The position numbers were made by a program, and so were the translations under genes. The notes below the pieces were generated by a model. The model was not told the origin of the DNA and made no database searches. It worked only from the letters and a program-made list of their open reading frames with translations. Below are positions 1 to 17,585 of a DNA stretch of 18,385 nucleotides, piece by piece (the first letter of the stretch is position 1; each line of letters begins with the position of its first letter). Where the stretch lies: NCBI GenBank assembly GCA_048886685.1, contig JBHLKM010000004.1, forward strand, positions 1 through 18,385, in the 5' to 3' direction. This stretch comes from Candidatus Hodarchaeota archaeon. Lineage in GTDB: Archaea > Asgardarchaeota > Lokiarchaeia > Sigyniarchaeales > SOKP01.

Positions 1-1006
1 TCTGGTTGCAGTTTATTAAGATAACTGAATTTAACAATGTTCTCATCTATAATTAAATCTAACATTTTATCAATTTTCTCATCTTCCCGAAAATAATAAG
101 TTTTATCCTCATTGAACCCTAACTTAAAGAAATTTATAGGGTATAAACGTTCTTCTGTTATATTTTGCACAAAAAAGTTAAGTGTGGCAATTCTTATATT
201 ATATTTAAGCGAAAAATTTTCAGGTGATATATATTCTGGATATTTATTTGGATGATTTATAGAAAGAAATAATAATATTTTATAAAAATCTTCTTTTGAC
301 GGCAGTGCATTCTCAATTTTCGCATAATCTAAATGATTATTCAAATCTAAGAATATAATTTCTACATCTTCATCTTCAATTTCATACTTATTAAGAAAAT
401 TCTTTACTTTTTCCTTGATATCTTCAATTTTTTCTATTTCTTCTTCTAAAACTGTTTGATAATCTAAATGATATTTTTTCAACATTTTATTATATTGCCC
501 TTCGCCTAATTTGGTAATTCTGTATTCCATGTTCTCACTATCTGCAAATCCCTTTTCTATTAAAAGATTTAGATTTTTAGATAGGGAATGGTGATTAATA
601 GAGAGAGGTTTCTCAAGGAAATCTGCCCATTTACAATAATCATTATTAAACAACATCCAAAGAATAATATGATCGTAATTTCTCTTATGCAAAATAATTT
701 CTGGAGGGTACCTTAACTTTCTTTCGAAAGAATCTTTGAATCTTAAGTCAATATATCGTTTTCTACCTTCAGAAGTAACCTCATAAATTCCTTTACTTTT
801 TTTCTCTACATAACCATTTGACATTAAGATATTCATATATTTAGATAATGTAGCTAAACTGATCTCTAAAGGTTCCTCTAAAAAATCAGACCAATTACAT
901 TCATCATTATTATTTAACATCCACAGAATAATATATTCAAAGTCTTTTTTTTCAATGCCGGAAGGATTGATTAATTCTTGAGGAGGATAATTTATCTTTT
1001 TCGCAC
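1..1006 (-). CDS. Partial protein with two tandem winged-helix-like repeats (putative DNA-binding regulator); runs off the left edge; start codon uncertain
   Basis: Manual translation, not in the ORF track: frame is open from 1040 to the window edge. It reads AKKINYPPQELINPSGIEKKDFEYIILWMLNNNDECNWSDFLEEPLEISLATLSKYMNILMSNGYVEKKSKGIYEVTSEGRKRY, then a second copy LRYPPEIILHKRNYDHIILWMLFNNDYCKWADFLEKPLSINHHSLSKNLNLLIEKGFADSENMEYRITKLGEGQY. The LSK..N.L...G....Y..T..G pattern is typical of wHTH domains. The first in-frame ATG (920) lies inside repeat 1; the GTG at 1006 is 1 nt out of frame. Confidence 0.8.
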
Positions 1007-1134
1007 AGATTTTACAAAACCACCTATCACATCTTAGTTTTCAATGTTATTGTAAAATTACAAATTATCATACTTTCATGTAAAAATCCCTATATATAAA
1101 TATGACAATAGAGTTTAAATAATTTAATTGAAAT

Positions 1135-1335
1135 ATTAAAAATCTCCTATTTCTCGTTTCTTTTCTCAATATTTTATTCTAATTTTGTAAGACTTCGCGC
1201 TTTAATCAAAGTTTCGAATAAACTAAGATAAAGAAGTATCGCACTTTGAGATAAGTTTCGAAGCTAAATCTAAAAATAAATATGTGATCTAAGAGTTAAT
1301 CAACAGTATTTAATTAAAAAAGGCTGATAAAAACG
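1135..1335 (+). repeat. Upstream element A, copy 1 (duplicated promoter/leader; core 1181-1277)
   Basis: Gapless alignment to 2605-2805 (offset 1470). Core 1181-1277 vs 2651-2747 is 86/97 identical by manual count; flanks are weaker but colinear. Confidence 0.9.
1195..1261. promoter_or_regulatory. Pair of imperfect palindromes TCG-N2-CTT-N6-AAG-TTT-CGA (1195-1217, 1239-1261), 44 bp apart; putative operator or recombination sites
   Basis: TCGCGCTT-TAATCA-AAGTTTCGA and TCGCACTT-TGAGAT-AAGTTTCGA; the same pair is conserved in element A copy 2. Confidence 0.55.
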
Positions 1336-2448
1336 AATTTAAATAGAGGTAAAGAAAAGATCCTATTTTATTTCTTACTTTATAGTATTATCATATTTTC
1401 TATGTTTATGGGGATTGAAATAAATGGGACAGAGTTAAATGATGAGATAAGTAAGAAATATTTTCCAAAAAACGCAGGAACTTGGGAATTATCACCATTT
1501 GAGATTGATGCTACTGCCACAGGCGTTGGTGGTCATAATTGGACATGGGCGGTAAGTCAAATGTGGTGTACAGGCTTAGGTACTTGGAATAATCCTTATG
1601 TCATCGAAGATCTTACTATTGACGGAGGAGGTTCAGATTACTGTATCTCAATTCGAAATTCGGATGTACATTTTAGAGTCGAAAATTGTAAACTTTCCAA
1701 TACAGGTTCTGGAACCGAAGACGCAAGTATTAAATTGCTCAATACTGATAATGGAATAGTAATATATAATACTTTATCGTTTAATGGGCGCTGTGGAATG
1801 TTTCTCAAGTATAGTAATAATAACACAATCTCAGAAAACACTGTTAATGATAATGATGTTTTTGGGATAAGATTGATGTTTAGCAATAACAATGAAATTT
1901 CAGGAAATACTGCTCTTAGAAATATAATAGGAATATATTCACATTTTGAGTGCAATAATAATACAATTTCAGGAAACACATGCAATAATGGAGAAGGGGG
2001 CATTACATCAGGATTAACACTCGAGTTTGAGTGTAATTACAACAGAATTTCAGGGAACATAGCAAAAAATAATCTAATGGGTATAACAATAGAAAATCTA
2101 TGTAATAACAACACAATTGAAGGAAATACTTTTAAAAGCAATTCATTGCGTGGGATATGGATAAAAAAAAGTAATTTTAACCTTGTAAGTGAAAATACGG
2201 TAAATAAAAATAACATCGGGATTGATTTAGAAGAATCTAATTATACTCATATTATAGAAAATACTTTACTTGGAAATAGTATATGTATAGATGAAGAAGA
2301 TTGTGTGGGGAATTTTTTTCAAAATAACAATTGCGACGAAATACAAACAACAGCTATCAATGGATACGAATTACATTTCTTAATTGGCGTAGTTGTCATA
2401 ATCTTTGGAATTTTAATTAGAAGACAATTGAAATTTTCATCCTCTTAA
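1333..2448 (+). CDS. NosD/CASH-type right-handed parallel beta-helix surface protein with a C-terminal Loki-CTERM-like membrane anchor (ORF track starts at 1402; probable true start is ACG at 1333)
   Basis: Repeated G(I/M)xLxxSNNNxISxNT-type beta-helix motifs; WCTGLGTWNNPYVIEDLTIDGGG; C-terminal INGY + hydrophobic helix + basic tail (INGYELHFLIGVVVIIFGILIRRQLK). The in-frame extension from 1333 gives a signal-peptide-like N-terminus. Confidence 0.85.
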   Translation, partial: TNLNRGKEKILFYFLLYSIIIFSMFMGIEINGTELNDEISKKYFPKNAGTWELSPFEIDATATGVGGHNWTWAVSQMWCTGLGTWNNPYVIEDLTIDGGGSDYCISIRNSDVHFRVENCKLSNTGSGTEDASIKLLNTDNGIVIYNTLSFNGRCGMFLKYSNNNTISENTVNDNDVFGIRLMFSNNNEISGNTALRNIIGIYSHFECNNNTISGNTCNNGEGGITSGLTLEFECNYNRISGNIAKNNLMGITIENLCNNNTIEGNTFKSNSLRGIWIKKSNFNLVSENTVNKNNIGIDLEESNYTHIIENTLLGNSICIDEEDCVGNFFQNNNCDEIQTTAINGYELHFLIGVVVIIFGILIRRQLKFSSS

Positions 2449-2470
2449 AGTCTTTTATTATTTTATAATC

Positions 2471-2567
2471 AAGCTATAGAATTGGAGGATCAAGTTTAGA
2501 TATCTAGCTTCTCGAATGACCACACCTAAACCAATAATCCTCCTATTCTATATTTTTTTTTCTTTTA
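2471..2567. repeat. Downstream element B, copy 1: long imperfect hairpin followed by poly-T (terminator-like or structured element)
   Basis: TATAGAAT-T-GGAGGAT...GTTTAG...CTAAAC...ATCCTCC-T-ATTCTATA then T9. 2471-2552 is 76/82 identical to 3479-3560. Confidence 0.9.
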
Positions 2568-2604
2568 TTGCTTTTTCTTAATGGAATAGTTATGAGGAAA
2601 TTTG

Positions 2605-2805
2605 ATTAAATACCTCCTGCTTGTCGTGACTTATCCTAATATTTCATTCAAAATTTATAAGACTTCGTACTTTGTTCAAAGTTTCGAATAACTTAAGAAA
2701 AAAAAGTATCGCACTTTGAGATAAGTTTCGAAGCAAAATCTAAAAATTGTATAGTCGCATAAATATCAATAACAACAATCTAACACAAAGAGGTTCAAAA
2801 AAATG
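2605..2805 (+). repeat. Upstream element A, copy 2 (core 2651-2747)
   Basis: Gapless match to 1135-1335, ending at the ATG of 2803..3438. Confidence 0.9.
2665..2731. promoter_or_regulatory. Second pair of TCG-N2-CTT-N6-AAG-TTT-CGA imperfect palindromes (2665-2687, 2709-2731)
   Basis: TCGTACTT-TGTTCA-AAGTTTCGA and TCGCACTT-TGAGAT-AAGTTTCGA, with the same 44-bp spacing as copy 1. Confidence 0.55.
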
Positions 2806-3438
2806 AAGAAATTAAAACTAATTCAAAAATTAACATTGGTAACTTTAGTAGGTCTTATGGTATTTGGTCTTTCAACAGGAGCTCTAGGGGCTAATACTGA
2901 AAAAATTAGACCGATTGAAGAATGGGGAGAAGTTAATCCTTTCCTTGGTGTTTGGTTTGTTTGGCCTAGACTATTTTTTGCTTATGACTGGTATGGTGAA
3001 CTTGCTGATCCCGATACAACCTATGATGGATTTATTCTTGAAAAGGAGAACTCTGATGGATCCCTTGATGTAAAAGTAAACTTGTTCATCCATAATGTGC
3101 CTATGGGTGTACTTGAATGGCAAATGGGATTAATTTTTATGGGTGCTGGAGAACTTCATTTTTATACAGAATTTACAATGGATAATGGTTACTATGGTAT
3201 TGAATTACCCACGTTAGATAATCTTATTGAGAATTACACCTTTGGAATTCATGGCCAACTAAAATCAATGCATTTTGTTGCTTATGGTTCTGGAGTTTAT
3301 TTTATAGAAGATGTGTCAGCAAAGCTTACATTTAAAGGATTGGGATTAGTAAAACCCGATTTACGAGATGATCATCCATTGCGTGGGATTTACCCTATAA
3401 TTTGGCCCGGTGAATTCATAAAAATCCATACAATATAA
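2803..3438 (+). CDS. Hypothetical secreted protein
   Basis: 211-aa ORF with a Sec-type signal peptide (MKKLKLIQKLTLVTLVGLMVFGLSTGALGA) and a GAGG SD-like motif upstream. No family recognised. Confidence 0.85.
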   Translation: MKKLKLIQKLTLVTLVGLMVFGLSTGALGANTEKIRPIEEWGEVNPFLGVWFVWPRLFFAYDWYGELADPDTTYDGFILEKENSDGSLDVKVNLFIHNVPMGVLEWQMGLIFMGAGELHFYTEFTMDNGYYGIELPTLDNLIENYTFGIHGQLKSMHFVAYGSGVYFIEDVSAKLTFKGLGLVKPDLRDDHPLRGIYPIIWPGEFIKIHTI

Positions 3439-3478
3439 GAAAGTGAGGTTAAACTAGCGAGGGTTGAATTACTTAACT

Positions 3479-3578
3479 AAGATATAGAAGCGGAGGAATA
3501 AGTTTAGATATCTGGCTTCTCGAATGACCACACCTAAACCAATAATCCTCCTATTCTATATATTTTTTTTTTCTTTTA
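3479..3578. repeat. Downstream element B, copy 2: hairpin + poly-T
   Basis: Near-identical to 2471-2567; begins 40 nt after the stop of 2803..3438; T10 tract at 3563-3572. Confidence 0.9.
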
Positions 3579-3783
3579 ATAACTTTGTTAATAAAGTAAT
3601 TGTTACAAAAGACTTTGTGTGAATAATCTTCTTAGAAATAAGAAAAAAGCAAAAAATTAAGATCATAAGGTTTAATAACAAATGTAATGAAATATTTATT
3701 TATTTATTACAAAAATGTGAAATCTTATAAAAAAGAATTTTAAAATTAATACTTCTGAATAAATTTTTGAATCATGAGTCTGA

Positions 3784-5484
3784 ATGACAGCAGAAACAAC
3801 CCGACCTAAGAAGAAAGTATCAATATTTAAAAAAAAGCCTTTTATTGTTGGAGGAATATCAGGTATTATAGCAATAATGGGTATTGTGATTGGTATTAAT
3901 CTTTACTTTAACATTTCGCACCCTGAGGTTGTTTTGGTTTTTGGTACACAGTATAATCCCAGTTTTATTGATCCACTTGCAGCATATGCTGAAAGCGACG
4001 TAAATCTCATCGATCAAGTTGCTGAAGGATTATTTGATTATAATTATTCTAGTGAATTTTTTGAACCCATTCCGAACTTAGCAAAAAATTTTTCATGGAA
4101 TAATAATGCCACAGAATTAACATGTTATCTTAGAGAAAATGTTTTGTTTCATGATGGAACAAAATTTGATGCTACAGCAGTCAAATGGAACTTTGAAAGA
4201 ATAAACAGGTTAATTAATCATACCGACTTTGCTGCGTCTCATTTATGGTTATTACCTGATGGTAGGACCATCATTAATAGAACTCAAGTTCTAGATGATT
4301 ACACTATTAAATTTATATTAAACGCCCCCTATGTGCCTTTTAAAGCTTTATTATCCTCTTGGACATCGTATATATTATCACCTGAATCTACACCTGCGGA
4401 TGATTTTATTGACCTTCTATCTGGTAAATTAGTAGGAACTGGTCCTTTTATTTATGATATATATGAGTATCCAGAAAAATTATCATTATCGACAAATTCA
4501 AATTATTGGGGTGTTAAACCAAAAATCGATAAATTAATTTTTTTTGTGGTAGGCACTAATCCCGTCCGAGTTGAAGCTATGCTTTCTGGGGAAATTCATA
4601 TGTTAGTTGATATTTCCTTTAATGAAACAACCCTCGATAGCTTCAGAAATAATTCCGAGTTTACTGTACAAGAAGGGATGCTTGATGCTAAGTTTAATTT
4701 TCTCATAATGAATAATAAATTAATTAATACAACAATGAGAAAAGCAATCTCTTTTGCTTTTAATTACTCATATTGGTTAGACCTTTTGCAAGTAGTTAGA
4801 GCAAAATCACCCCTTCCAGAAGTTATACTTTACTATAATATAACAGGTTTAAAAACTCCTTATTGTAATATTTCAATAGCAAGACAAACTTTGAAAGATG
4901 CAGGTTGGCCCGGAACTAGTAGTTTAACAGTAAACAATAACATCAGTACTGGTAATGAATGGGAAAAACTCGTAGAAGATGGAATCCCTCTTGCAACTTA
5001 TAATTTTTCTTATTTTCCAGAAGCGTGGTGGAAAGCACTTTCGGGACCTTTAGCTGAAAATCTTAAACAAATTGGAGTAAAAATAGAAAATGCTAATATG
5101 TCCTTTGGACAATGGTTGGATATAATGAATGAAGAGTCTGGTTATCATAGAAATATGCTTGGACTTACCTACACAGGTTGGATAGCAGATTTTAATGACC
5201 CTAGCACTTTTGTTAATCCATATTTCACAAATAAAGTACCTGCAGTAAATTGTGGTCAAGTCAATGATACTCTAACACAACAATGGATGGAGGAGGCATT
5301 AGGAGAGTCAAATGAGATTTCAAGAGAAAATCTTTACTATAAGATTCAAAAACGACTTATTGAAGACGTTTTTCCGCATGTTTGGCTATGGACATCAACA
5401 CGTACGGATATCTATATATCAAATTTAAGAGGATGGTATTCTAATCCATATAAACTTGTATTTAAATCAGTTTATTTCGTCTAA
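3784..5484 (+). CDS. ABC transporter substrate-binding protein, family 5 (DppA/OppA/NikA-like), N-terminally membrane-anchored
   Basis: Family-5 motifs PIPNLAKNFSW, LRENVLFHDGTKFDATAVKWNFER, VGTGPF, NYWG, MRKAISFAFN, GWIADFNDP; N-terminal TM helix. Confidence 0.92.
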   Translation: MTAETTRPKKKVSIFKKKPFIVGGISGIIAIMGIVIGINLYFNISHPEVVLVFGTQYNPSFIDPLAAYAESDVNLIDQVAEGLFDYNYSSEFFEPIPNLAKNFSWNNNATELTCYLRENVLFHDGTKFDATAVKWNFERINRLINHTDFAASHLWLLPDGRTIINRTQVLDDYTIKFILNAPYVPFKALLSSWTSYILSPESTPADDFIDLLSGKLVGTGPFIYDIYEYPEKLSLSTNSNYWGVKPKIDKLIFFVVGTNPVRVEAMLSGEIHMLVDISFNETTLDSFRNNSEFTVQEGMLDAKFNFLIMNNKLINTTMRKAISFAFNYSYWLDLLQVVRAKSPLPEVILYYNITGLKTPYCNISIARQTLKDAGWPGTSSLTVNNNISTGNEWEKLVEDGIPLATYNFSYFPEAWWKALSGPLAENLKQIGVKIENANMSFGQWLDIMNEESGYHRNMLGLTYTGWIADFNDPSTFVNPYFTNKVPAVNCGQVNDTLTQQWMEEALGESNEISRENLYYKIQKRLIEDVFPHVWLWTSTRTDIYISNLRGWYSNPYKLVFKSVYFV

Positions 5485-5536
5485 GGTATTATCTTTAATT
5501 TCAGCAAGAATGGAAATAAATTATAATGAGCTTTTT

Positions 5537-6508
5537 TTAGTGACTTATGATATCAATAATACGTGTACCAGTTATGTAAAATGACAAATTATAGTTATTT
5601 TTAGTAAGAAAATCAAAGGACTTATATAAATACCCCACAACACCCAAATATTTAATGTCAAATCCTTCTACACTTTCTAAGGGAGCGATGCCAATTTCTG
5701 ATATAGGAAAAGTAAACAATGCTCCAATTTCAGAATTATTATCTTTATAATTCAAATTTAGGTTTCCTGTGTTTATTGTTGCTAAGCCAGTTATGTTCGC
5801 ACCCATTTCATTATCTTGATGGATTTCAAGATACATATTACCAACTTCAATATTAAGAATCCAAGTGGTATTTTGAGTACACACTAAGTTAAATGAGTTT
5901 AATTTAATATCACCATATTTGGTAATTCCTGTTATATTATTTCCTATTATACAGCTATAAAAATCATAAAAAATATCACCTTTGGTAATATTTGTAAATA
6001 CTTTGCCAATAAAAACTCCCCACGGAACCGTTATTTTGAAATCTCCTTCAATAACTATTGTAAGAATATCAAGAGTGATGTCCTTCCTAATAAATATAAT
6101 TATTTCAATATTTTTCTTGATCCATTTTGAAGGATCATTCCAATTATCTGATAAAAGCTCCATAGTAAAATTGAGTGAAGAACTAGTGTTATCCCAATTA
6201 ATACTAAAGTAATCGGAATATGATTTCCCAGCCACATCAGAACCAATTACATCAAAATTTACATCTATCTTTACAGCATCTTCAACTTGAGGATCAACAT
6301 AGTTTATCTGAATATTTCCTATATCAATGTTAAGATTCAATTCTTCGATTGAAGAAATATTATCTGGAGCACATTTAAAAGAAATACCCCCATGAATTAT
6401 ACCATAAGGTGCGAGAGTGGTTGAAAGGAAAACTATTGGGAAAGTAATGATTAAACTAAAACCGAGAATAACAATAATACTAATTGCTATGATACTTTTA
6501 TTCGCCAT
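5537..6508 (-). CDS. Hypothetical membrane-anchored protein with beta-strand repeats (DUF4097/adhesin-like)
   Basis: 323-aa ORF with an N-terminal hydrophobic helix and recurring GNI/GDI/GDF turn motifs (IDIGNIQINY, ITKGDIFYDF, TKYGDIKLN, INTGNLNLNY). Family assignment is tentative. Confidence 0.7.
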   Translation of the reverse strand: MANKSIIAISIIVILGFSLIITFPIVFLSTTLAPYGIIHGGISFKCAPDNISSIEELNLNIDIGNIQINYVDPQVEDAVKIDVNFDVIGSDVAGKSYSDYFSINWDNTSSSLNFTMELLSDNWNDPSKWIKKNIEIIIFIRKDITLDILTIVIEGDFKITVPWGVFIGKVFTNITKGDIFYDFYSCIIGNNITGITKYGDIKLNSFNLVCTQNTTWILNIEVGNMYLEIHQDNEMGANITGLATINTGNLNLNYKDNNSEIGALFTFPISEIGIAPLESVEGFDIKYLGVVGYLYKSFDFLTKNNYNLSFYITGTRIIDIISH

Positions 6509-6726
6509 CGTATATTCTCATGATTAGAGTTAATGAATCTACAATTAATCATATAGAAAAGGATTATATTTAAACTAATTCTTCAAAACAAATTTTTAAT
6601 AATGATGTTTAACTCAAATTTAAAAGATTTATAATTGGAAACAATCTAATATTTCTAATGGATGTTTTTTTCAAAAAATTCTTAACATAATTTAATCTAT
6701 AAAATAGAATTGGAAAAGGTACTAAT

Positions 6727-8556
6727 ATGTTGGAAGAATCAAAGTCAGAAGACTCAAATTTCATTGATGTTAAAGAATTTAATAAAAGATTTCAAGAATG
6801 GGCTAAAAAATATGGGCCACTCCTCTTAGAACTTGGAAAGTTGGGGACAGAAGATAAACTTTCATGGGGATTGATTCTTGAAGAAAACGCACAAAAGTAC
6901 CCGGATAATCCTGCTATTAAGTTTGAAGATATCATTTTAACCTATAAAGAATTTAATGATATGGTTAATCAATATGCAAATTATTTTATCTCTTTAGGTT
7001 TGAAAAAAGGTGATGTAGCAAAAGTTTTAATAAAGAATCGAATAGAGTTTTTAGTTCTGTATTCCGCAAATGCGAAAATAGGAGCAATATCTTCATTGAT
7101 CAATACGGATTTACGCAAAAAAACTCTGGTGTATAGTCTAAATCTTACCCCTGGTAAAATTATTATAGTAGGTGAAGAATGTTCTGATACATTTAATATG
7201 GTTAAATCTGATGTCAATTTATCTGATGTAAATCAGCTCTGCTTTGTATATGATAGTGGAGAAATGAAACTCCCTGAAGGTTTTATAGATCTTCTTCAAA
7301 CTGTAAAAAATTTCCCTACAAGCAATCCAAATACCACAACCAATGTTGAACCATCAGATGTTATTGCTTATTTATTTACTTCCGGTACAACTGGATTACC
7401 TAAAGCAGCATTACTAACACATTCCCGAGTGATTGGGCCAGGGTTTGCATTTGGGAAGTTAATAGCACAATTTACTCCAGATGATACTATTTATATCCCA
7501 CTCCCTTTCTTTCATGGTACTGCATTAATGACAGGTTGGTCATCCGTCTTTGTTAATGGAGCTGCTTTAGCATTAGCTCGTAAATTTAGCGTTAGCCATT
7601 TTTGGAATGATATTCGAAAATTTAACGCCACCAGTTTTAATTATGTTGGAGAAATATGCCGTTATTTGATGAACCAACCTCCTAGTGATGACGATTCAAA
7701 CAATCCTGTGCGAGTGGTAATTGGAAATGGTCTTCGACCAGAAATTTGGGTGGATTTTAAGAAAAGATTTAATATCCCTGTTATAGGAGAATTTTACGGA
7801 TCATCAGAAGGAAACGGAGGATTTGCTAATCTATTAAATTTTGACTGTACCTGTGGATTATCGCTCGGGGGTCATGCAATTGTACGATACGATCATGAAG
7901 AGGAGAAAATAATTAGAAATCAAAGAGGATTTGCTAAAAAAGTTCGCCCAGGAGAAGCCGGCTTACTCATGTTTGAAAGCATAGAGACTAGTAAATTTAG
8001 AGGATACACTGATGAGAAAGCAACTGAAGCAAAATTAATTCATAATGTCTTTAAAGAGGGGGATGTTTGGTTTAACACAGGTGATTTAATGCGGGATCAA
8101 GGCTGTAACCATGCTCAATTTGTAGATCGTCTTGGAGATACTTTCCGATGGAAAGGGCACAACGTTTCAACATCTGAAGTGGAAGAAATTCTCAATATAT
8201 TTGACCAAATTACAATATCTTCTGTGTATGGTGTTAAAATCCCAAATACAGATGGACGTGCAGGAATGGCTGCAATAGTTCCAAAATCCAATGCTAATGA
8301 GTTTAACTTTAAGGAGTTGGTTAAACTTTTAGCAGAAAATCTTGCACCTTATGCGATCCCAATTTTTCTTCGATTCAAAACAAATATGACAACTACACAT
8401 AGTTTCAAACTTAAGAAATTAAAGCTCAAAGAAGAAGCTTTCAATCCTGAAATTATTGATGATCCATTATTTATTTTGATCCCAAAGGAATCAAGATATA
8501 TACCTCTAACAAAAGTTATCTATAAGAGAATTCAGAAACAGAAATATAAGTTTTAA
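6727..8556 (+). CDS. Long-chain fatty acyl-CoA synthetase, FATP/SLC27/FadD6-type
   Basis: ANL motifs FTSGTTGLPK, GEFYGSSEG, WFNTGDL, FVDRLGDTFRWKGHNVS, YGVKIPNTDGRAGMAAI and YVGEICRYL, characteristic of the FATP/VLACS subfamily. Confidence 0.93.
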   Translation: MLEESKSEDSNFIDVKEFNKRFQEWAKKYGPLLLELGKLGTEDKLSWGLILEENAQKYPDNPAIKFEDIILTYKEFNDMVNQYANYFISLGLKKGDVAKVLIKNRIEFLVLYSANAKIGAISSLINTDLRKKTLVYSLNLTPGKIIIVGEECSDTFNMVKSDVNLSDVNQLCFVYDSGEMKLPEGFIDLLQTVKNFPTSNPNTTTNVEPSDVIAYLFTSGTTGLPKAALLTHSRVIGPGFAFGKLIAQFTPDDTIYIPLPFFHGTALMTGWSSVFVNGAALALARKFSVSHFWNDIRKFNATSFNYVGEICRYLMNQPPSDDDSNNPVRVVIGNGLRPEIWVDFKKRFNIPVIGEFYGSSEGNGGFANLLNFDCTCGLSLGGHAIVRYDHEEEKIIRNQRGFAKKVRPGEAGLLMFESIETSKFRGYTDEKATEAKLIHNVFKEGDVWFNTGDLMRDQGCNHAQFVDRLGDTFRWKGHNVSTSEVEEILNIFDQITISSVYGVKIPNTDGRAGMAAIVPKSNANEFNFKELVKLLAENLAPYAIPIFLRFKTNMTTTHSFKLKKLKLKEEAFNPEIIDDPLFILIPKESRYIPLTKVIYKRIQKQKYKF

Positions 8557-8590
8557 AGATGGGATTTTTTAAAATCCTACAAATAATTAG

Positions 8591-9535
8591 TCATATATTA
8601 AAACCATCTTCAAAATCATCATAATCCTCAAGATCAAATCGTTTCCTTTCTTCTTCTTTCTTTTCCTTTTTAAGTTCTTTACGTTCTTTATATGTTAGTT
8701 CGTCGTATCTTTTTGTATATATTTCCTCATATTTTTCTCTTAATGCTTCAACATCTTCTACATGCCCTAATTTCTCTTCAAGACCATCCTCGAAAAAATA
8801 ATTTTTCTTAAATTTCTTAGCAGGAATTCCAACATAAATCCAACCTGTTTCTAACTCTTGACCTACAGTTGTTACTGAATTTGCTGCAAGAATACAATTA
8901 CGTCCGATGTGGGTACCTGGCATTACTATCGAATGAGATCCTATTCTAACCCCTTCTTCAATAATAGTTTTTCTCATAATCAAGAGATTTCCTATAATCG
9001 TGGCACTTTGTACAATTGCGCCCTGTCCTACCACAACATCCCGTCCAAACTCAATCATCTCAGTGTCAACCCACCCTTCGAATAAAGAGTTTGATATTTT
9101 AGTTTTTACCCCAAACATTTTGAAACAAATATTATCTAATATTCCTGGAAATGGAAATCTATGGGCAAGCCAAACTGGCCATCTCTTAATTGTGTTGCGA
9201 AGACTCCAATAACGATAGTCCCTATCTGCTGGAACTCTTAGGAACACCCCTTCTCTTGGTTTGTGAATAGCGTTTATTATAAGCAGTAGAATCTTTGTGA
9301 AAAATATTGCGGCAAACACGATGGTAACATACATTAAAAAAGCCAGAAGCGGGAGATATGTGTAAAAATGAACTGGTCTCGAATAACTCCATAATAATTG
9401 CCAATATACCCAAAATTCTAAGAGGAGGGGAATTATACTTGCCCATATTAACAAGAAGTAAAATATTAAATATCTTTTCTTCACTAACACTGTAGGAGTG
9501 AAAGGTCCTACACGCATTGTATTTGGTACACTCAT
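8591..9535 (-). CDS. Membrane-bound left-handed beta-helix (hexapeptide-repeat) acyltransferase-like protein, single module
   Basis: Two N-terminal TM helices, HKPREGVF...YWSLR, hexapeptide repeats (IEEGVRIGSHSIVMPGTHIGRNCILAANS), YVGIPAK, highly charged tail. Its start overlaps the stop of the upstream paralog (ATGA, 9532-9535). Confidence 0.85.
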   Translation of the reverse strand: MSVPNTMRVGPFTPTVLVKKRYLIFYFLLIWASIIPLLLEFWVYWQLLWSYSRPVHFYTYLPLLAFLMYVTIVFAAIFFTKILLLIINAIHKPREGVFLRVPADRDYRYWSLRNTIKRWPVWLAHRFPFPGILDNICFKMFGVKTKISNSLFEGWVDTEMIEFGRDVVVGQGAIVQSATIIGNLLIMRKTIIEEGVRIGSHSIVMPGTHIGRNCILAANSVTTVGQELETGWIYVGIPAKKFKKNYFFEDGLEEKLGHVEDVEALREKYEEIYTKRYDELTYKERKELKKEKKEEERKRFDLEDYDDFEDGFNI

Positions 9536-11394
9536 GATTTTTCAACCTCTTTTTCAACTTTAATTAAATCTTTTTTATCCTCATCTATATTTACGTCATG
9601 TTCCATTTCAAATTTCGTTGCTCCATCCACATCACGTTTCAGTATGACATCTCTCCTTTCTTCTGCGTATTTATTTTCTTTTAATTTAATTGCAGGGATC
9701 CCAAAATACACCCACATTGGTTCTAAAACTTGATTGACTGTTGTTGAAGAAAGTGCGCCTATCACCGATTCTTTACCCATAATTGTTCCTGGAGCGATAG
9801 TTGTATGACCACCAACCATTATATAGTCATCACATACAACTTTTTTAATAATCAAATATCGACCAACCACCATACTTGACATAATAGTAGCTCCTTGTCC
9901 GATTAAACTCTTTCGCCCAAATTTAATGAATTCAGCATCACACCATGCATCATTAAGATGGCTTGAAGCATCCATATCAACACCAAATAATCTTAATGCT
10001 ACTACGTCTGTCCATGGAAGTGGGGAATTTCTCATAAACCATAAGGCGATTTTTTTTAATTCAGTTCTTAACATCCAGAATTCAAAATCTTCATCGCCAA
10101 TCTCTGCTTTAAAGACTCCTTCTTTAGGTTTATGAATTAAATTTACAAGAATTAAAAATAATTTACTAAAAAGGATGCAGGCTAAAATGAAAAAATAAAT
10201 AGAGCCAAATATCGCAAAGGGAAGAAATGATAAGATAGCAATCCAGTTCTCATCAACTAAATACCAATACCAAAATATCGAAACAATTAATCCTGCTAGC
10301 CAAAAGATTGGTAAGTAGACTGCTAAGAATTTTATGTTGACTCTACTGATCGCAGAACTCGTAGTGAAATCAAGAGATAAATCTCCGTCGGTTAAATCAC
10401 TAATATTAATTCTTTTTTCATCTGAATCACTAATTAGTTGTTCTTTTTCAGGTTGGTCATTAGATATTTCTTTTGAAACCGCTTCTGTTTTTAAATCTTT
10501 CAATAGCTTTTTATCCTTATACCCTTCAATATTTTCATTTTTCTCTAAATCTTTAGGAGATACCTTTAAGTATTTCATAGTTTTTTTTCTAAAAATTTTT
10601 CTTAATGGAATTCCCCAATAGTAATTATTTCCTTTAATAACACTATGCTTATTCGTTGATGCTAATGGGAGAAGAAAAGATTCATCATGAATCTCTGAAC
10701 CTGGACCAATTTGGCTCATAGCACTAGAGGTTACATTATCGCCGACGTTTATTTTAAAATAGGTGATATTACCAAAAATCCCTTGAATTAAGTGGCTTGC
10801 CAATGTAGAATTAACTCCAAAATAGCAATTCTTCCCGATATCAACAAATTTATCATTGCCTACAGATTCTTCTAAAGTTGTGCCTTTTCCGATCTTATCG
10901 GAACCTACAAAATTAAAAAACCAATTACTTAACCAAGGAAAGGCACCTTTCGTAAAAGAATTTTTGCCATATTTGATCATAAAGCTTCTTATATGATAAT
11001 AATTGGCAGCTCTACTACGTATATTACGCGGTATTATTCCTGATCTTGATGGAGACATCTTTTCAGTAAACTTCCAGAAAATATTTGTAGTTAATCCTAA
11101 GATAAATAAATGAAGTAAATAGCATCCTATAAGAACTAATGGCATTAATAGAAAAGTAAGTAGAGGTTTAACTTGAATAAAAATTACAAAAAAATTTGTA
11201 GTTTCTAAAAAATATGGAAGAAAAAATTGAATCAAATAAAAGAAAAAACACAAGCCAGGAATAACCCATGAAGAGTAAAAAATACAACCAAAGATCAAAA
11301 TATATAAGTGATACTGAAGATTAACTTCTTCTTTAATAATTTCGTTATGATTTAGGGGATCACTCTCCTCAGAATCTTCACTCATTTTTACCAA
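9532..11394 (-). CDS. Membrane-bound left-handed beta-helix acyltransferase-like protein, two tandem [2TM+LbH] modules (paralog A)
   Basis: Two modules, each with a TM pair and hexapeptide repeats, ending in YWGIP and YFGIPA; charged linker between them. Confidence 0.85.
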   Translation of the reverse strand: MVKMSEDSEESDPLNHNEIIKEEVNLQYHLYILIFGCIFYSSWVIPGLCFFFYLIQFFLPYFLETTNFFVIFIQVKPLLTFLLMPLVLIGCYLLHLFILGLTTNIFWKFTEKMSPSRSGIIPRNIRSRAANYYHIRSFMIKYGKNSFTKGAFPWLSNWFFNFVGSDKIGKGTTLEESVGNDKFVDIGKNCYFGVNSTLASHLIQGIFGNITYFKINVGDNVTSSAMSQIGPGSEIHDESFLLPLASTNKHSVIKGNNYYWGIPLRKIFRKKTMKYLKVSPKDLEKNENIEGYKDKKLLKDLKTEAVSKEISNDQPEKEQLISDSDEKRINISDLTDGDLSLDFTTSSAISRVNIKFLAVYLPIFWLAGLIVSIFWYWYLVDENWIAILSFLPFAIFGSIYFFILACILFSKLFLILVNLIHKPKEGVFKAEIGDEDFEFWMLRTELKKIALWFMRNSPLPWTDVVALRLFGVDMDASSHLNDAWCDAEFIKFGRKSLIGQGATIMSSMVVGRYLIIKKVVCDDYIMVGGHTTIAPGTIMGKESVIGALSSTTVNQVLEPMWVYFGIPAIKLKENKYAEERRDVILKRDVDGATKFEMEHDVNIDEDKKDLIKVEKEVEKS

Positions 11395-11522
11395 TTGATT
11401 TATATTCCTATCTATTTATTATAAGTTTTATTCAATTAAAAAACAATTGATGCTTATAATACTTTATTAGATATTTCGTTTCCTTTTAAAGTTATGAATC
11501 TAAATTAAAAAGAAATTCTACG

Positions 11523-11918
11523 ATGAAAACTCTATGTGAGAATTGCGGAAAGTGTTGTCTAGAAACAGAAATGATTCTTTCTCAACAAGATGTTGAATTA
11601 ATAAGAAAAAAGTGTCCTAATAATTTAAAAGAACAGGATTTTGTATTCAAAAACAATAATAAAAAGTTTCAATTAAAAAATATGGAAGGACATTGCGTAT
11701 TTTTTGATTACTCTTCCAAAAATTGTAATATTTATAAATATAGACCTCAAGGATGTAAATTTTACCCACTAATATTTGATGTAAATGAAGGAAAATGTAA
11801 ACTTGATGAGGATTGCCCTAGAACTAATCTATTCTACAAGAATAAACGAGAGTTTAAAACTACCTGTCAAAAATTAAAGATATTTTTAAAGAATCAATTA
11901 AATTTGAAAATATCTTAA
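11523..11918 (+). CDS. YkgJ-family cysteine-cluster (CxxCxxCC) putative Zn/Fe-chelating protein
   Basis: CENCGKCC, CVFFD, CNIYKYRPQGCKFYP motifs. Confidence 0.9.
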   Translation: MKTLCENCGKCCLETEMILSQQDVELIRKKCPNNLKEQDFVFKNNNKKFQLKNMEGHCVFFDYSSKNCNIYKYRPQGCKFYPLIFDVNEGKCKLDEDCPRTNLFYKNKREFKTTCQKLKIFLKNQLNLKIS

Positions 11919-11933
11919 ACAATTTGGGATTAT

Positions 11934-13763
11934 TTAAGTAAGATCTTTTTTATCTTTATCGATGTTTACTTCGTATTCTATTTCAAATTTCTTTTCTTCA
12001 TCTACATCTCTTTTCATTAAAATCTCTCTCTTGGATTCAGCATATTTGTTTGGTTTAAGTTTGATGCAAGGTATCCCTAAATAGATCCATCCGGGTTCAA
12101 GAATTTGAGAATATATAGACGTAGAAAGAGCGCTGACAAATGTATCTTCTCCTATAATAGTACCTGGTGCAACAGTGGAATGTCCTCCGACAAGAGAATA
12201 ATCACCACATATTACATTTTTTATAATCAAATATCGACCTACCACCATTGAAGACATAATCGTGGCTCCTTGTCCGATTAAAACTCTACGCCCAAATGTT
12301 ATAAACTCCCCATCACACCAAGAATCATATAATGAACTTGATAAAGTCATCTTTACTCCAAACCATTTAAAAGCAAGAATATCCATCCATGGAATAGGCC
12401 AATTCCGTATAAGCCATAGAACAATTTTTTTTACTTCAGTTCGTAAACACCAAAATTCGAAATCTGGGTCTCCAATTTCTGCTTTAAAGACTCCCTCTTT
12501 TGGTTTATGAATTAAATTTATCAAAATTAAAAATAATTTACTAAAAAAGAAACATCCTAATATAAAAACAAACCACATAATAATAACCATTGTTGGGAGA
12601 AAAAAAATCATTAAAATTTTATTTTTAACGTATGAGGTGAATGTATAAAATAAAATGGTATCTAGCATACCGGATAACCAAAAAATTGGGAGGTATACTA
12701 TTAAAAACTTTATATTAACTTTTGAAATTGCACTACTAGTTGTAAAATCTAATGCCAAATCCGCTTCTTTTAAATTATTATTGTTATTTTTTTCTTGCTC
12801 TTCATAAGTGCTTTCTTTACTTTTTTCGATTGCTTCATTAAACTGTCCCAAAATCTTCTCATTTTTTAATTTCTCTATTATTTTTTTATCAGTATATCCT
12901 GCAATATTTTCATTTATCTCTAAATCTTTTTGTGTTAAAGAAAGATATTCCATAGTTTTCTTTCTAAATATTTTCCTTAAAGGAATTCCCCAATAGTAGT
13001 TATTTCCTTTTAATACGCTATGCTTTCCAGCAGAAGCTAAAGGAAGTAAATATGAATTATCATGTACTTCTGATCCGGCGGCGACTAAATTTGTTCCCGC
13101 AGCAGTAACATTATCTCCTACTTTTACATGAAAATAATTAATATTTCCAAAAGTTCCATCAACCAAATGAGTTGCTAAAGCAGAGCATGCACCAAAATAA
13201 CAATTTTTTCCAACGATGCCAAATTTTTCATTACATATACTCTCCTCCAAAGTTGATCCTTTTCCAATCTCGCTTGAACCCACAAAATTGTATAACCAAT
13301 TGCTCAACCAAGGAAAGATTCCTTTATTAAATGAGGTCTTACCATATTTTATCATGAAGCTTCGAAGGTGATAATAATTAAGAGTTCTACTCGGAACATT
13401 CCTAGGGATTATACCATCTTTACTAGGAGACCTTTTTTCACTCAAGCTCCAAAAAGATCGTGTTGTTAGCCCAATAAAAAATAATCGGACTAAATAACAT
13501 CCGATTATTACTAGGGGCATAGATATTAATGCAAGAATTGGCTTCACTTGCGTGAATAGAGCTAAAGCACTTGTTACTTCTAAGAAATTAGGTAAGAAAA
13601 AAAGTAAGAAATATGTCATAAATAAAAATGCTGGAACCAGTAATGATGTGAGATAAATTGTAAAAAATATAATCAAGTACAAAGAGTACTGAACTTTGAA
13701 TTCTTCTTGGGGAACTTCATCTTCTGAAACATTTTCAGGTAATTGTTGCTCCATCGTTGTCAT
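11934..13763 (-). CDS. Membrane-bound LbH acyltransferase-like protein, two modules (paralog B)
   Basis: Colinear with paralogs A and C; shared RSFMIKYGK, GNNYYWGxPLRKIFRKKTM, LDFTTSSAIS, HKPKEGxFKAE. Confidence 0.85.
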   Translation of the reverse strand: MTTMEQQLPENVSEDEVPQEEFKVQYSLYLIIFFTIYLTSLLVPAFLFMTYFLLFFLPNFLEVTSALALFTQVKPILALISMPLVIIGCYLVRLFFIGLTTRSFWSLSEKRSPSKDGIIPRNVPSRTLNYYHLRSFMIKYGKTSFNKGIFPWLSNWLYNFVGSSEIGKGSTLEESICNEKFGIVGKNCYFGACSALATHLVDGTFGNINYFHVKVGDNVTAAGTNLVAAGSEVHDNSYLLPLASAGKHSVLKGNNYYWGIPLRKIFRKKTMEYLSLTQKDLEINENIAGYTDKKIIEKLKNEKILGQFNEAIEKSKESTYEEQEKNNNNNLKEADLALDFTTSSAISKVNIKFLIVYLPIFWLSGMLDTILFYTFTSYVKNKILMIFFLPTMVIIMWFVFILGCFFFSKLFLILINLIHKPKEGVFKAEIGDPDFEFWCLRTEVKKIVLWLIRNWPIPWMDILAFKWFGVKMTLSSSLYDSWCDGEFITFGRRVLIGQGATIMSSMVVGRYLIIKNVICGDYSLVGGHSTVAPGTIIGEDTFVSALSTSIYSQILEPGWIYLGIPCIKLKPNKYAESKREILMKRDVDEEKKFEIEYEVNIDKDKKDLT

Positions 13764-13795
13764 TTTATTAAATTTTCAATTATGATTAATATTTT

Positions 13796-15625
13796 TTAAG
13801 TGAGATCTTTTTTATCCTCATCAACATTGATTTCATGTTCAATTTCATACTTTTTCTGATTATCTACATCTCTTTTCATAAGGATTTCTCTTTGCGATTC
13901 AGTATATTTGTTTTCTTTTAATTTTATAACAGGAATCCCAAAGTAAATCCAACCTGGTTCGATAATTTGATTATATGTGGTTGCACTAATAGCACCAACA
14001 ACAGAATCTTTACCTACTATAGTTCCAGGGGCGATGGTTGATTGTCCTCCTATCACAGCAAAATCATCACAAGTTACCCTCTTTATAATTAAATAACGCC
14101 CAACAACCATAGAGGACATAACGGTGGCACCTTGACCTATAATATTCCTACGTCCAAATTCAATAAATTCGCCATCACACCAAGCATCCCATAATGAACT
14201 GGAAAGAGACATTCTTATTCCAAACCATTTAAAGGCTAATATATCCATCCAAGGAAGAGGCCAATTGCGTATAAGCCATAAAACAATTTTCCTTATTTCG
14301 ATCCGTAAACACCAAAATTCGAAATCTGGGTCTCCAGCTTCTGCTTTAAAGGTTCCTTCTTTAGGTTTATGGATTAAATTGATTAATATTAGAAATAATT
14401 TGCTGATGAAGAAACAGGCCATAATAAATATAAACCACAGAAGAATGACCATCGCAGGTAAAAAAAATGCTAAAATTATCCAAATTTGGACATAATAGGT
14501 AAATGTATAGAACCCTATTGTTACTAACATACCAGAAAGCCAAAAAATAGGTATATAAACAACTAAAAATTTTATATTTGATCTTGAAATTGCACTACTT
14601 GTTGTGAAATCAAGTGCTAAATCTTCCTCTGATAATGTATTTTTATCTATTTTTTCTTCATAAATTTCTTCGATTTTTTTTTCTTTTTCACAATTTTCAT
14701 CAATTTTAGTTGAACTATTCTCCAATTTTAAGTTTTGATAGAAAATTTTATCTCGATATTGTTTAATATTCTCATTTTTTTCTAACTCATCAGGTGTTAT
14801 ATCTAAATATTCCATGGTTTTTTTTCTGAATATTTTCCTTAACGGTAATCCCCAATAGTAATTATTTCCCTTTATTACGCTATGTTTTCCTGCAGAAGCT
14901 AAAGGAAGTAAAAAAGAGTTGTCGTAAACTTCTGAACCAGGACCTATGATGTTCATTACTGCTCCTGTAACATTGTTTCCTACTTTTACCTTAAAATAAG
15001 AGATATTTCCAAAAATTCCTTCAGTAGTGTGACTAGATATGGCAGAATTAACGCCTATATAACAGTTCTTCCCTACCTCAATAAATTTATCATTGGTAAC
15101 TGATTCTTCAAATGTTGTGCCTTTTCCGAATTTGCTGGCTCCAATAAATGGAAAGAACCAATTACTAAGCCATGGAAAGATACCTTTGGTAAATGAATTC
15201 TTTCCATATTTAATCATGAAGCTCCTTATAAGGTAATATTTAAGAATTCTACTGGGAAAATTTCTCGGGATTATGCCATTTTTAGTGGGAGACTTTTTTT
15301 CGCTCCATTTCCAAAAACCACGAGTTATTAATCCCACAAAAAATAAACGAATTATATAACAACCTATGAGAACTAATGGCATAGAGATTAATGCTAAAAA
15401 TGGTCTAAATTCAGTAAAAAGTGTAATAAAATTTGTAGTGTCTAAGAAATATGGCAAGAAAAAAAGGATCACATAACTCATAAATAGGAGCGCAGGAATA
15501 ACTAATGAACCTAAATAAATCGTAAATAACATAAAGAGATACCAAAAATATTGGAATTTAATTTCTTCTCTAATTAACTCGTTCCCAGTTTCGTTTTCAA
15601 TTGATTCCAATTTAGTCTCTGCCAT
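13796..15625 (-). CDS. Membrane-bound LbH acyltransferase-like protein, two modules (paralog C)
   Basis: Same architecture and same length (609 aa) as the adjacent paralog B; 32-bp intergenic gap; tandem duplication. Confidence 0.85.
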   Translation of the reverse strand: MAETKLESIENETGNELIREEIKFQYFWYLFMLFTIYLGSLVIPALLFMSYVILFFLPYFLDTTNFITLFTEFRPFLALISMPLVLIGCYIIRLFFVGLITRGFWKWSEKKSPTKNGIIPRNFPSRILKYYLIRSFMIKYGKNSFTKGIFPWLSNWFFPFIGASKFGKGTTFEESVTNDKFIEVGKNCYIGVNSAISSHTTEGIFGNISYFKVKVGNNVTGAVMNIIGPGSEVYDNSFLLPLASAGKHSVIKGNNYYWGLPLRKIFRKKTMEYLDITPDELEKNENIKQYRDKIFYQNLKLENSSTKIDENCEKEKKIEEIYEEKIDKNTLSEEDLALDFTTSSAISRSNIKFLVVYIPIFWLSGMLVTIGFYTFTYYVQIWIILAFFLPAMVILLWFIFIMACFFISKLFLILINLIHKPKEGTFKAEAGDPDFEFWCLRIEIRKIVLWLIRNWPLPWMDILAFKWFGIRMSLSSSLWDAWCDGEFIEFGRRNIIGQGATVMSSMVVGRYLIIKRVTCDDFAVIGGQSTIAPGTIVGKDSVVGAISATTYNQIIEPGWIYFGIPVIKLKENKYTESQREILMKRDVDNQKKYEIEHEINVDEDKKDLT

Positions 15626-15760
15626 TCGTGTTCAATATATTGAGAATAATTTAACGATTTTTAAGATATATTTTATAATAAGGTAATTTCTCTAAAAAAA
15701 TCAATGTTTAGATTTTTTCATCTTTATGGATTTGAGAAGAAAGAAATGAACGGATAAAGA

Positions 15761-16771
15761 TTAGATATGGATAATAGTTTTGATGTAATCGTTTTTTTCT
15801 TTAAAAGAACTAAAGGCTTTCATAATATCTTCTAAGTTATATTGCTTAGAAATTAATTTATCTACTTTAATTCTTCCTGACTTTAATCCCTCAATAGCTT
15901 TATCAAAAGGACCACATCTACTGCTGTATAGAGTTAACTCACGAACTACAATATCAGTGAGATTAATAGGGGTATCAATTCCATGAGTACTTTTGAAATG
16001 AATCTTACCACGGGTTCTGCATGATGCAATAACATCTTTAAGTGCATTAGGGTTTCCACTCGCATCAATTACAATATCAGCACCTAGATTATTAGTCAAT
16101 TTTTTAATTTTTTCTTGAATATTCTTTTGTTTTAACCTATTAATTATATGATGAGCTCCATATTCCTTAGCTAATTGAAGTTTATAATCTGAACCATCTA
16201 TAGCAATTAGTTCTAAATTTTTTGATAATGCTACTTGTGTAATTAATAAGCCTAACTTCCCAAGGCCGAATATAGCCATTATTTTGTCTTTCTTATCAAT
16301 TGGCATTAACTCAAATATTTGATAAGCAGCAGCAAGGGGTTCTATAAACGTAGCTGCATCGTATGGGAATGAATCTGGTATTTCATGTAATAAATAAGAT
16401 TCTAAAGCAATATATTCTGCTAATGCACCATCAATATCAATACCAATTGCTTTACGAGATTGACATTGTGAGTATAATCCTCGCTTACAATAATAGCAGT
16501 TGAAATCAATATTACTATTAATCTCAGATACAACTCGTTTATTGATCCATGATTTCTCAACATCTTTACCTATTCTTACTACTTTCCCTGCAAGTTCATG
16601 ACCTAGAACTATTGGAGTAGGGGTAGGTAAATCTCCTCTCATTATAGCCAAATCAGTCCCACAAATTCCCACAGCTTTAATGCGAACTAATACTTGAGAA
16701 TCATTAATAATCGGATCATCAACATTTTTAATTTTAATTTCCTTACCGTCAAATACCGCTGCTTTCATCAT
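15761..16771 (-). CDS. Zinc-dependent medium-chain dehydrogenase/reductase (alcohol/threonine dehydrogenase-like)
   Basis: GICGTD, LGHE, CYYC...C Zn loop, EPLAAA, Rossmann GLGKLG, SSRCGPF. Confidence 0.92.
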   Translation of the reverse strand: MMKAAVFDGKEIKIKNVDDPIINDSQVLVRIKAVGICGTDLAIMRGDLPTPTPIVLGHELAGKVVRIGKDVEKSWINKRVVSEINSNIDFNCYYCKRGLYSQCQSRKAIGIDIDGALAEYIALESYLLHEIPDSFPYDAATFIEPLAAAYQIFELMPIDKKDKIMAIFGLGKLGLLITQVALSKNLELIAIDGSDYKLQLAKEYGAHHIINRLKQKNIQEKIKKLTNNLGADIVIDASGNPNALKDVIASCRTRGKIHFKSTHGIDTPINLTDIVVRELTLYSSRCGPFDKAIEGLKSGRIKVDKLISKQYNLEDIMKAFSSFKEKNDYIKTIIHI

Positions 16772-16986
16772 ATCATCTTCTATTATAAATATTTAGTTTT
16801 AAATTTACAGAATATAATTAAAAAGGTATAATTATAGTATATAATTAATCCCTCTTTCTATAAAGCTTATAGAATCTAAACAACACTTTTTTTATCTCAG
16901 ATTAAATATAATATAACATAAATATTATTTTAAAGGATAATCTTAAACAATTTCATATAAAATTATTATTTAAAAATTCTAAAATT

Positions 16987-17529: not shown

Positions 17530-17585
17530 TTTTAAAACAATTTTTATTTTCCTTTTCCTTTCTAAATATAAAAAAAATTTTTATA

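Follow-up and report, generated by a model that had tools for sequence, protein, structure and literature searches.

Conserved promoter-like and 3' hairpin modules flank two unrelated exported-protein genes in a Candidatus Hodarchaeota archaeon

How do two dissimilar genes come to lie between the same non-coding sequences? The question is raised by an 18,385-nucleotide (nt) stretch of Candidatus Hodarchaeota archaeon DNA (contig JBHLKM010000004.1, positions 1–18,385, forward strand; assembly GCA_048886685.1), hereafter the window. Near its start, two copies of an element A (A1, A2) and two of an element B (B1, B2) enclose, in the order A-gene-B-A-gene-B, a NosD-type beta-helix gene (open reading frame 1, ORF1) and an unrelated gene for a 211-aa secreted protein (ORF2). 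To our knowledge, almost nothing is known of gene regulation in Asgard archaea, and our literature search on Asgard promoters and terminators and on MITEs (miniature inverted-repeat transposable elements) in Lokiarchaeia returned nothing specific. A first-pass annotation of the letters alone had read the layout as a standardised expression frame around exchangeable ORFs, arising either from an integron-like or MITE-bounded cassette system or from a co-regulated gene set. Comparison with related genomes makes it probable that A and B are separate conserved regulatory modules and not the ends of a mobile cassette, A being a promoter controlled by a neighbouring winged-helix-turn-helix (wHTH) protein and B a 3' hairpin. 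This reading is carried by observed conservation, element positions, synteny and a difference between species at the locus. Genomes, contigs and loci carry our own labels: G000 is this genome, C4 its contig that starts with the window and L204 its contig C11; G005, G006, G009, G011–G015 and so on are relatives' genomes in the comparison.

Two unrelated genes within the same flanks

A repeat finder aligned A1 with A2 (1135–1277 and 2605–2747; 84% over 143 nt, offset 1470) and B1 with B2 (2466–2569 and 3474–3577; 88%, offset 1008), and gapped alignments confirmed both repeats. At the scale of the whole 4.4-Mb genome, A1 matches A2 with a BLAST E-value of 1.5e-38 and B1 matches B2 with one of 2.6e-33, which excludes chance as the cause of their likeness. 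Outside the repeats, identity drops to background (15/38 upstream of A, 19/37 after B). The enclosed genes are dissimilar (BLASTP E = 0.11): ORF1 matches the Pfam NosD/Beta_helix families, whereas ORF2 matches no Pfam family. The two observations at the root of the first-pass annotation, similar flanks and unlike cargo, were therefore both borne out.

Ordinary tandem duplication, with ORF1 and ORF2 as remote homologs diverged past recognition, would suit the tandem layout and the similar flanks. Against it, a NosD-type beta-helix with a membrane anchor faces a different beta-rich fold in ORF2, BLASTP finds no significant likeness, and ORF2 orthologs (63–77% identity) stand beside the regulator gene in species without ORF1; we give this explanation virtually no credence.

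The statement that A ends exactly at each gene's start holds for ORF2 (ATG 2803), and for ORF1 only if ACG 1333–1335 is the start codon. The ORF1 frame is open from 1318 to 2448, and its first ATG, GTG or TTG (1402) lies downstream of a signal-peptide-like stretch; that N-terminus is present only if translation begins near 1333. The ACG occupies the ATG position of orthologous loci and follows a weakened Shine–Dalgarno sequence (AAGG) where the G013 and G012 leaders have GAGG...ATG, marking either a non-AUG start or a gene heading to decay.

Element A as a candidate promoter module of a winged-helix regulator

nhmmer found only four A copies in the genome: A1, A2, C11:9748-9647 (-) and C11:425-468 (+). 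Across the genus, 23 distinct copies were collected, in which three blocks can be delineated: an imperfect dyad, CTTCG-N17-CGAAG, which occurs twice in both A1 and A2; an invariant CTAAATCTAAAAATAAA block containing the invariant AAATCTAAAAAT box; and a leader of ~55 nt that ends in GAGGT followed by the start codon. Dyad motif, AAATCTAAAAAT box and spacing to the start codon are constant over the 23 copies, which precede five mutually unrelated gene families, namely the ORF2 family, two beta-helix families, a family of 227-aa anchored proteins and a ubiquitin-like protein ending in GG. A1 is the positional ortholog of the wHTH–ORF2 intergenic region in G013 and G012, with which it aligns end to end. 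From this arrangement we infer that A is an archaeal promoter module with a conserved leader, in which the CTAAATCTAAAAATAAA block would be the B recognition element (BRE)/TATA box. A promoter consensus sought in tRNA upstream regions gave no clear box (only 14 tRNAs were called).

The gene next to A1 supplies a candidate regulator. The first 77 nt of C4, reverse-complemented, are identical to the first 77 nt of C11, so that the two contigs adjoin, with part of the wHTH gene on each. Its window part (920–3, 306 codons) and C11:78-411 together encode 417 aa, in keeping with full-length homologs of 417–419 aa in relatives, and the product is a tandem winged-helix protein (Pfam HTH_45 and HTH_34). 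Joining C4 and C11 places all four A copies in one ~13.6-kb cluster around this gene. Drawn with the wHTH gene pointing rightwards, the leftward part reads, from its outer end inwards, the solute-binding protein (SBP) gene, B2, ORF2, A2, B1, ORF1 and A1, all pointing left; to the right of the wHTH gene follow a rightward A copy and the ubiquitin-like gene, then E2, E1 and JAB genes and, further on, an SBP gene, B, an ORF2 paralog and its A copy, again pointing left.

This association recurs. Almost every A copy has a wHTH homolog (50–82% identity) inside its fetched 1.5-kb flanks; wHTH homologs also adjoin many ORF2/B loci in relatives, and the gene is adjacent in G000 and at loci of G005, G006, G009, G011–G015 and others. 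Where the wHTH paralog is more distant, the dyad beside the TATA box is another, related one. A dyad motif with an adjoining, co-inherited wHTH gene is the pattern of a local transcription factor with operator-bearing promoters. We accordingly infer, from sequence and gene order, that the A dyad is the operator of the neighbouring tandem wHTH protein, which would bind it next to its own gene and would control a local regulon made up of the five families listed above.

In Thermococcales, the glycolytic motif is a palindromic operator beside the BRE/TATA box, bound by TrmB-family regulators. The A system resembles such regulons in that several unrelated genes have a dyad at constant spacing upstream of a TATA-like box, in that the regulator gene lies in the same cluster, and in that paralogous regulators go with variant motifs. 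Unlike the TrmB and Lrp types, the candidate regulator here has its tandem wHTH domains on one 417-aa chain, and the half-sites of its predicted operator are 17 nt apart; unlike in TrmB regulons, A includes a ~55-nt conserved leader common to unrelated genes.

Two side observations concern the regulator. Genes for wHTH paralogs of ~50% identity (G000:C9:123560-124946, L135, L138, L141, L153) are accompanied by a dyad CTCGGAA...TCCGA and a AATAAAAACTATATATGG box, and these promoters often precede ORF2-family genes; paralogs and variant dyads together look like a family of regulator/operator pairs. On L204 (425–2796), an A-core promoter (dyad plus AAATCTAAAAAT) precedes a gene for an 84-aa ubiquitin-like protein (Ubl) ending in GG (510–764), followed by convergent genes for E2 (UQ_con), E1 (ThiF) and JAB; the order wHTH, A-core, Ubl is repeated in G012, G013 and G014. 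An Asgard ubiquitin-like gene may thus share its regulator with surface-protein genes. A candidate operator–regulator pair before both surface-protein genes and the Ubl gene of a Ubl–E2–E1–JAB cluster offers a lead to the control of the Asgard ubiquitin system.

Element B as a conserved hairpin behind exported-protein genes

B is a ~117-nt module comprising a three-helix hairpin, a highly conserved 26-nt loop and an oligo-T tract directly after it. Its consensus reads AGGGTTGAAATCTCTAAATTnAAATATAGAAAAAGGAGGAAAAAGTTTAGATAAATGGCTTCTCGAATGACCACACCTAAACCAATATTCCTCCATTCTATATATC followed by 8–10 T, with a T-run in all aligned copies, and B1 and B2 each fold as one long hairpin that ends at the T-run (Table 1). 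The arms, TATAGAAnnnGGAGGA and TCCTCCnTTCTATA, are terminal inverted repeats of ~15–16 nt, and the loop exceeds them in conservation, being the most conserved part of the element. Stem cells are paired in 91% of cases versus 38–54% in slid controls. B1 has no copy of the usual 5' extension AGGGTTGAAATCTCTAAATT, and its hairpin is perfect all the same. Rfam 15 returned no match at E <= 1 over window positions 900–3900 on both strands.

BLAST and nhmmer located six B copies in this genome, dispersed over four contigs. About half of the genus genomes hold 1–8 copies at 80–89% identity (range 0–8 per genome). A covariance model built from 39 copies was run over 120 genomes of the order; it detected B at ~150 places in 45 of them, which all belong to one family (23/34 genomes of genus g1, 20/35 of g14 and, weakly, 1/7 of g16), and found none in 19 genomes of three other families.

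The element is closely tied to one set of genes. Of the 29 ORF2-family genes in the genus, 27 are followed by B at 6–73 nt past the stop codon, 26 of these copies being co-oriented with the gene, and genomes that have no ORF2 family show at most a weak or partial match. In the second genus, 16 of ~23 copies again stand behind ORF2-family genes. In a set of 74 distinct copies, ORF2-family genes precede 43, and other genes whose N-termini look like signals precede 17; for seven the sole neighbour is convergent, two lack any neighbour, and the last five comprise three at ORFs truncated by the locus end, one behind ORF1 and one behind the PNP gene. At least 60 of the 74 are co-oriented with, and within 150 nt of, the upstream ORF. 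B copies are 80–90% identical while ORF2 proteins share only ~20–30%, which indicates that B is strongly constrained; paralogous copies and copies from other species are about equally distant (80–90%). B thus represents an uncatalogued non-coding element that marks exported-protein genes in one archaeal family.

Placed behind these genes, B is most likely a 3'-untranslated-region (UTR)/terminator RNA element, for which a sense-strand RNA structure is plausible from the stem pairing; it would act in the transcript 3' end as a terminator combined with a stability or recognition element. As outlined in PMC8716108, archaeal termination uses a U-tract together with aCPSF1 and needs no long hairpin. 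B is like the terminators in that outline in ending in a T-run of 8–10, and differs in that its conserved structure of ~80 nt and its conserved loop go beyond what is required there.

Several B-related sequences deserve separate mention. A sub-family (L035, L078 and L079, from G007, G012 and G002) keeps the stems and carries another loop, ...ACTTCCAGACGAAGC..., in which ACTTCCAGACGAAGC is a compact inverted repeat of the A-dyad half-sites (ACTTC/CGAAGC); the main loop contains CTTCTCGAA. A decayed copy outside the window (G000:C4:28338-28421 (-), nhmmer E = 1.5e-5) lies behind another beta-helix gene with a C-terminal membrane anchor. A protein-coding role for B was considered and rejected: sense ATGs are not conserved (the first is absent from both window copies), one-nt indels and variable T-runs disrupt every frame, and an 18-aa ORF across the 5' extension of the C37 copies is interrupted in other copies. 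The B loop is longer than the rule of our bacterial promoter/terminator scan allows.

Evidence against the favoured reading and rivals for B

A number of observations weigh against A and B as purely cis-acting regulatory modules. The promoter, terminator and RNA roles are deduced from sequence, and a terminator role leaves the conserved 26-nt loop unaccounted for. Owing to high sequence conservation, covariation in B is weak: the score is 0.098 versus 0.078 in shuffles (0/500 reach 0.098), slid controls show similar double-change counts, and true compensatory changes are few. Stem mismatches are balanced (26 G-U, 22 A-C) with no strand asymmetry, which gives a sense-strand RNA no advantage over a palindrome acting at the DNA level or on the antisense strand, and the antisense strand folds more stably (-31.7 versus -21.1 kcal/mol for sense). 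On C11, B and its gene have opposite orientations. B is present in the PNP/HTH intergenic region of G000 only; this region spans 194 nt in G000 versus 10–70 nt, with no B, in the other 23 genus genomes. Such a gain implies some copying or mobility beyond a pure cis-element model. Finally, the first unit, with ORF1 and its ACG codon, may be poorly translated or decaying.

B has two live rival readings. It could be an independently transcribed small RNA gene whose 5' extension (GGGTTGAAATCTCTAAATTnAAATATAG) serves as its own promoter and whose T-run serves as terminator; the RNA would consist of the inner hairpin and a single-stranded CCUCC tail able to pair with Shine–Dalgarno sequences, and the link to ORF2 would be mere co-location. 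Conservation of the extension holds in many copies regardless of the gene upstream, its sequence is similar to the AAATCT...AAAT box of A, the conservation peak in the loop suits an RNA gene, several copies, besides the inverted one on C11, are antisense to every neighbouring gene, and the PNP-locus copy stands without an ORF. This view is hard to reconcile with the co-orientation of 26 of the 27 copies behind ORF2-family genes, which start a few tens of nt from the stop, with the perfect hairpin of B1 despite its missing extension, or with outer stems that would fall outside such an RNA and yet are conserved and 91% paired. We regard it as unlikely, although the strongest of the alternatives.

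Slightly less probable again is a mobile palindrome of the REP, Correia or MITE kind that prefers gene 3' ends and has been co-opted as a terminator, so that spread and not selection would explain the likeness among copies. The imperfect palindrome with ~15–16-nt arms, the patchy 0–8 copies per genome, the gain at the PNP locus with 23 other genomes lacking B there, the inverted and the decayed (C4:28338-28421) copies and the symmetric mismatches all fit such an origin. In typical MITEs, however, conservation is highest in the arms, the opposite of what B shows; the flanks of the PNP locus have diverged, with no target-site duplication visible, and the insertion amounts to ~180 nt instead of a clean ~117-nt copy. 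In the own genome, an arm-pattern scan for a longer or autonomous element bounded by the B arms gave only noise and the known copies. The tight tie to one protein family persists in two genera despite protein divergence to ~20% identity, and equidistant copies match constraint better than recent bursts.

Bacterial genomes contain intergenic palindromic repeats at gene 3' ends, such as repetitive extragenic palindromes and bacterial interspersed mosaic elements (REP/BIME), enterobacterial repetitive intergenic consensus (ERIC) sequences and Neisseria Correia elements. Like these, B is an imperfect palindrome of ~100–130 nt, present in several copies per genome just past stop codons, with a hairpin of terminator or stabiliser potential and new copies occasionally gained. 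Unlike them, it is low-copy (0–8), more conserved in the loop than in the arms, associated with one exported-protein family and hosted by an archaeon, and no transposase partner or target duplication was found for it.

A more speculative proposal, which we hold a touch more doubtful than a mobile palindrome, extends the preferred reading: B would be a new class of cis signal for exported-protein mRNAs of Loki-type Asgard archaea (3'-UTR localisation, stability or translation, or a 3'-derived small RNA with an anti-Shine–Dalgarno CCUCC tail), the same wHTH protein would read both gene ends, and the A and B flanks would serve as homology arms. The compact A half-sites in the B loop (CTTC..CGAA in the main type, ACTTC-N4-CGAAGC in the sub-family) are what suggests that one protein could read both ends. 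If true, unrelated surface-protein genes could enter and leave the cluster through the A/B arms without a dedicated recombinase.

Mobile cassettes

The cassette hypothesis of the first-pass annotation, taken in its integron-like form, would make B an attC-type site and [gene-B] a cassette moved by a site-specific recombinase. B is indeed like attC sites and Vibrio cholerae repeats in forming ~120-nt, highly similar imperfect palindromes right after unrelated ORFs, and unit number varies between species. Yet A and B, expected always to occur as a pair, are independent: of the genus's 29 ORF2-family genes, 27 are followed by B and just 6 preceded by A, and genes behind A that were not found with B include cl3 and the ubiquitin-like gene. 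Nor was a co-occurring recombinase of the integron type found: the best match to the integron integrase model TIGR02249, on contig C2 of the own genome (100% complete by markers), scores 48 bits where the cut-off is 265, as would be expected of a generic tyrosine recombinase.

The architecture differs as well. At most two units stand in tandem, each window unit having its own A promoter, and B copies are spread over four contigs; neither an array nor an attI site or Pc promoter is seen. The inner repeat of B on the gene strand is GTTTAG...CTAAAC (consensus of 39–71 copies), by eye the reverse of the attC order RYYYAAC...GTTRRRY, and the outer arms TATAGAA/GGAGGA likewise do not fit attC by eye. 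B cargo is not variable and is tied to one protein family. B does show a presence/absence polymorphism at an orthologous site, after the PNP gene, with B in 1 of 24 genomes (G000). An integron-like system is therefore largely refuted and very improbable, and neither form of the cassette hypothesis, integron-like or MITE-bounded, is supported. This result removes a tempting claim of an archaeal integron-like system. Its counterpart in the same annotation, a set of co-regulated genes that have a promoter and a 3' element in common, is supported by A before five families and B behind most ORF2-family genes, as is the notion that different exported-protein ORFs sit in one and the same expression frame.

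Local history of the two units

Under the favoured regulatory reading, the two window genes would share flanks for two reasons. Both would belong to the same regulatory set, and the neighbouring copies would have been homogenised, either by short tracts of gene conversion or by a recent rearrangement at the locus that brought in [ORF1-B1-A2]. At the orthologous locus, G013, G012 and G005 have a single unit, wHTH followed by A-ORF2-B, and the wHTH–ORF2 intergenic region of these species aligns end to end with window 921–1338 (A1 plus leader). B2 is the positional ortholog of the B behind the G013 ORF2 ortholog, with the 5'-arm variant of that ortholog and the interior of B1. Taken together, the single units, the intergenic alignment and the B2 arm indicate that this genome has an extra 1,470 bp, [ORF1-B1-A2]. 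The expectation that orthologous loci would differ in unit number thus proved correct, with one unit in three relatives and two here.

Identity between the window copies is mosaic. Between A1 and A2, 39/52 positions match in the far distal segment and 35/43 across the distal dyad; the proximal dyad together with the TATA-like box reaches 46/48, and the leader only 33/59. Between B1 and B2, 16/21 positions match along the 5' arm and 58/59 over the remaining hairpin. In other species, the leaders of cl2 beta-helix genes come nearest to that of A2 (70–73%), while the A1 leader clusters with ORF2-type leaders, and the A core of either window copy has at most 76% identity to any third copy. A fresh duplication of the whole unit does not fit the mosaic or the differing relatives of the leaders. 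The pattern fits short gene-conversion tracts between neighbouring pre-existing modules, as judged from the alignments; a rearrangement using the modules as homology could also fit. The locus thus documents reuse of promoter and 3'-end sequences that were locally homogenised around unrelated genes.

Encoded proteins and neighbouring genes

Coordinates of the elements and genes are collected in Table 1. ORF1 carries a C-terminal transmembrane (TM) anchor and has no close ortholog in the genus (best identity 44–46%). ORF2 has a signal peptide and orthologs of 77% identity in G013 and 63% in G012. Its family, always annotated as hypothetical, occurs only in Lokiarchaeota/Promethearchaeota metagenome-assembled genomes (MAGs) and in one Hodarchaeota MAG. 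The AlphaFold model of ORF2 is confident (pLDDT 85.7) and beta-rich, with no clear PDB counterpart and no Foldseek match at E <= 0.001; the best VIA-align hits were assorted small beta-barrels at Z 6.3, too low to exceed a common arrangement, and a fold assignment on this basis was rejected.

Table 1. Elements and genes at the start of the window (positions in the window)
Feature	Position	Strand	Remarks
wHTH regulator gene, N-terminal 306 codons	3..920	-	divergent from A1; Pfam HTH_45 + HTH_34
A1, candidate promoter module	1135..1335	+	distal dyad 1194-1218; proximal dyad ~1238-1262; AAATCTAAAAAT TATA-like box within 1263-1277; leader 1278-1332
ORF1, NosD/right-handed beta-helix surface protein	1333..2448	+	Pfam match; C-terminal TM anchor
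B1	2452..2570	+	hairpin 2475-2552; T-run from 2553; covariance-model match 2452-2568, E = 9.7e-16
A2, candidate promoter module	2605..2802	+	distal dyad 2664-2688; proximal dyad ~2708-2732; TATA-like box 2733-2747; leader 2748-2802, GAGGT 2790-2794
ORF2, 211-aa secreted protein	2803..3438	+	Asgard-restricted family, no Pfam match
B2	3460..3578	+	5' extension 3460-3481; hairpin 3482-3561; T-run 3562-3577; covariance-model match 3460-3576, E = 4.2e-18
SBP_bac_5 solute-binding protein gene	3784..5484	+	Pfam; usual downstream neighbour of ORF2-family-plus-B units

Paralogs of the SBP_bac_5 gene lie 165–260 nt after B on C11 of G000 and in G005, G006, G009, G014 and G015. Many A- or B-linked proteins, among them ORF1 (~2350–2448) and the cl3, cl4 and cl13 proteins (L047, L023, L034, L033), finish with a (P/N)G(Y/F) motif ahead of a hydrophobic helix and basic residues at the tail; these C-termini resemble archaeosortase-type (PGF-CTERM-like) sorting signals.

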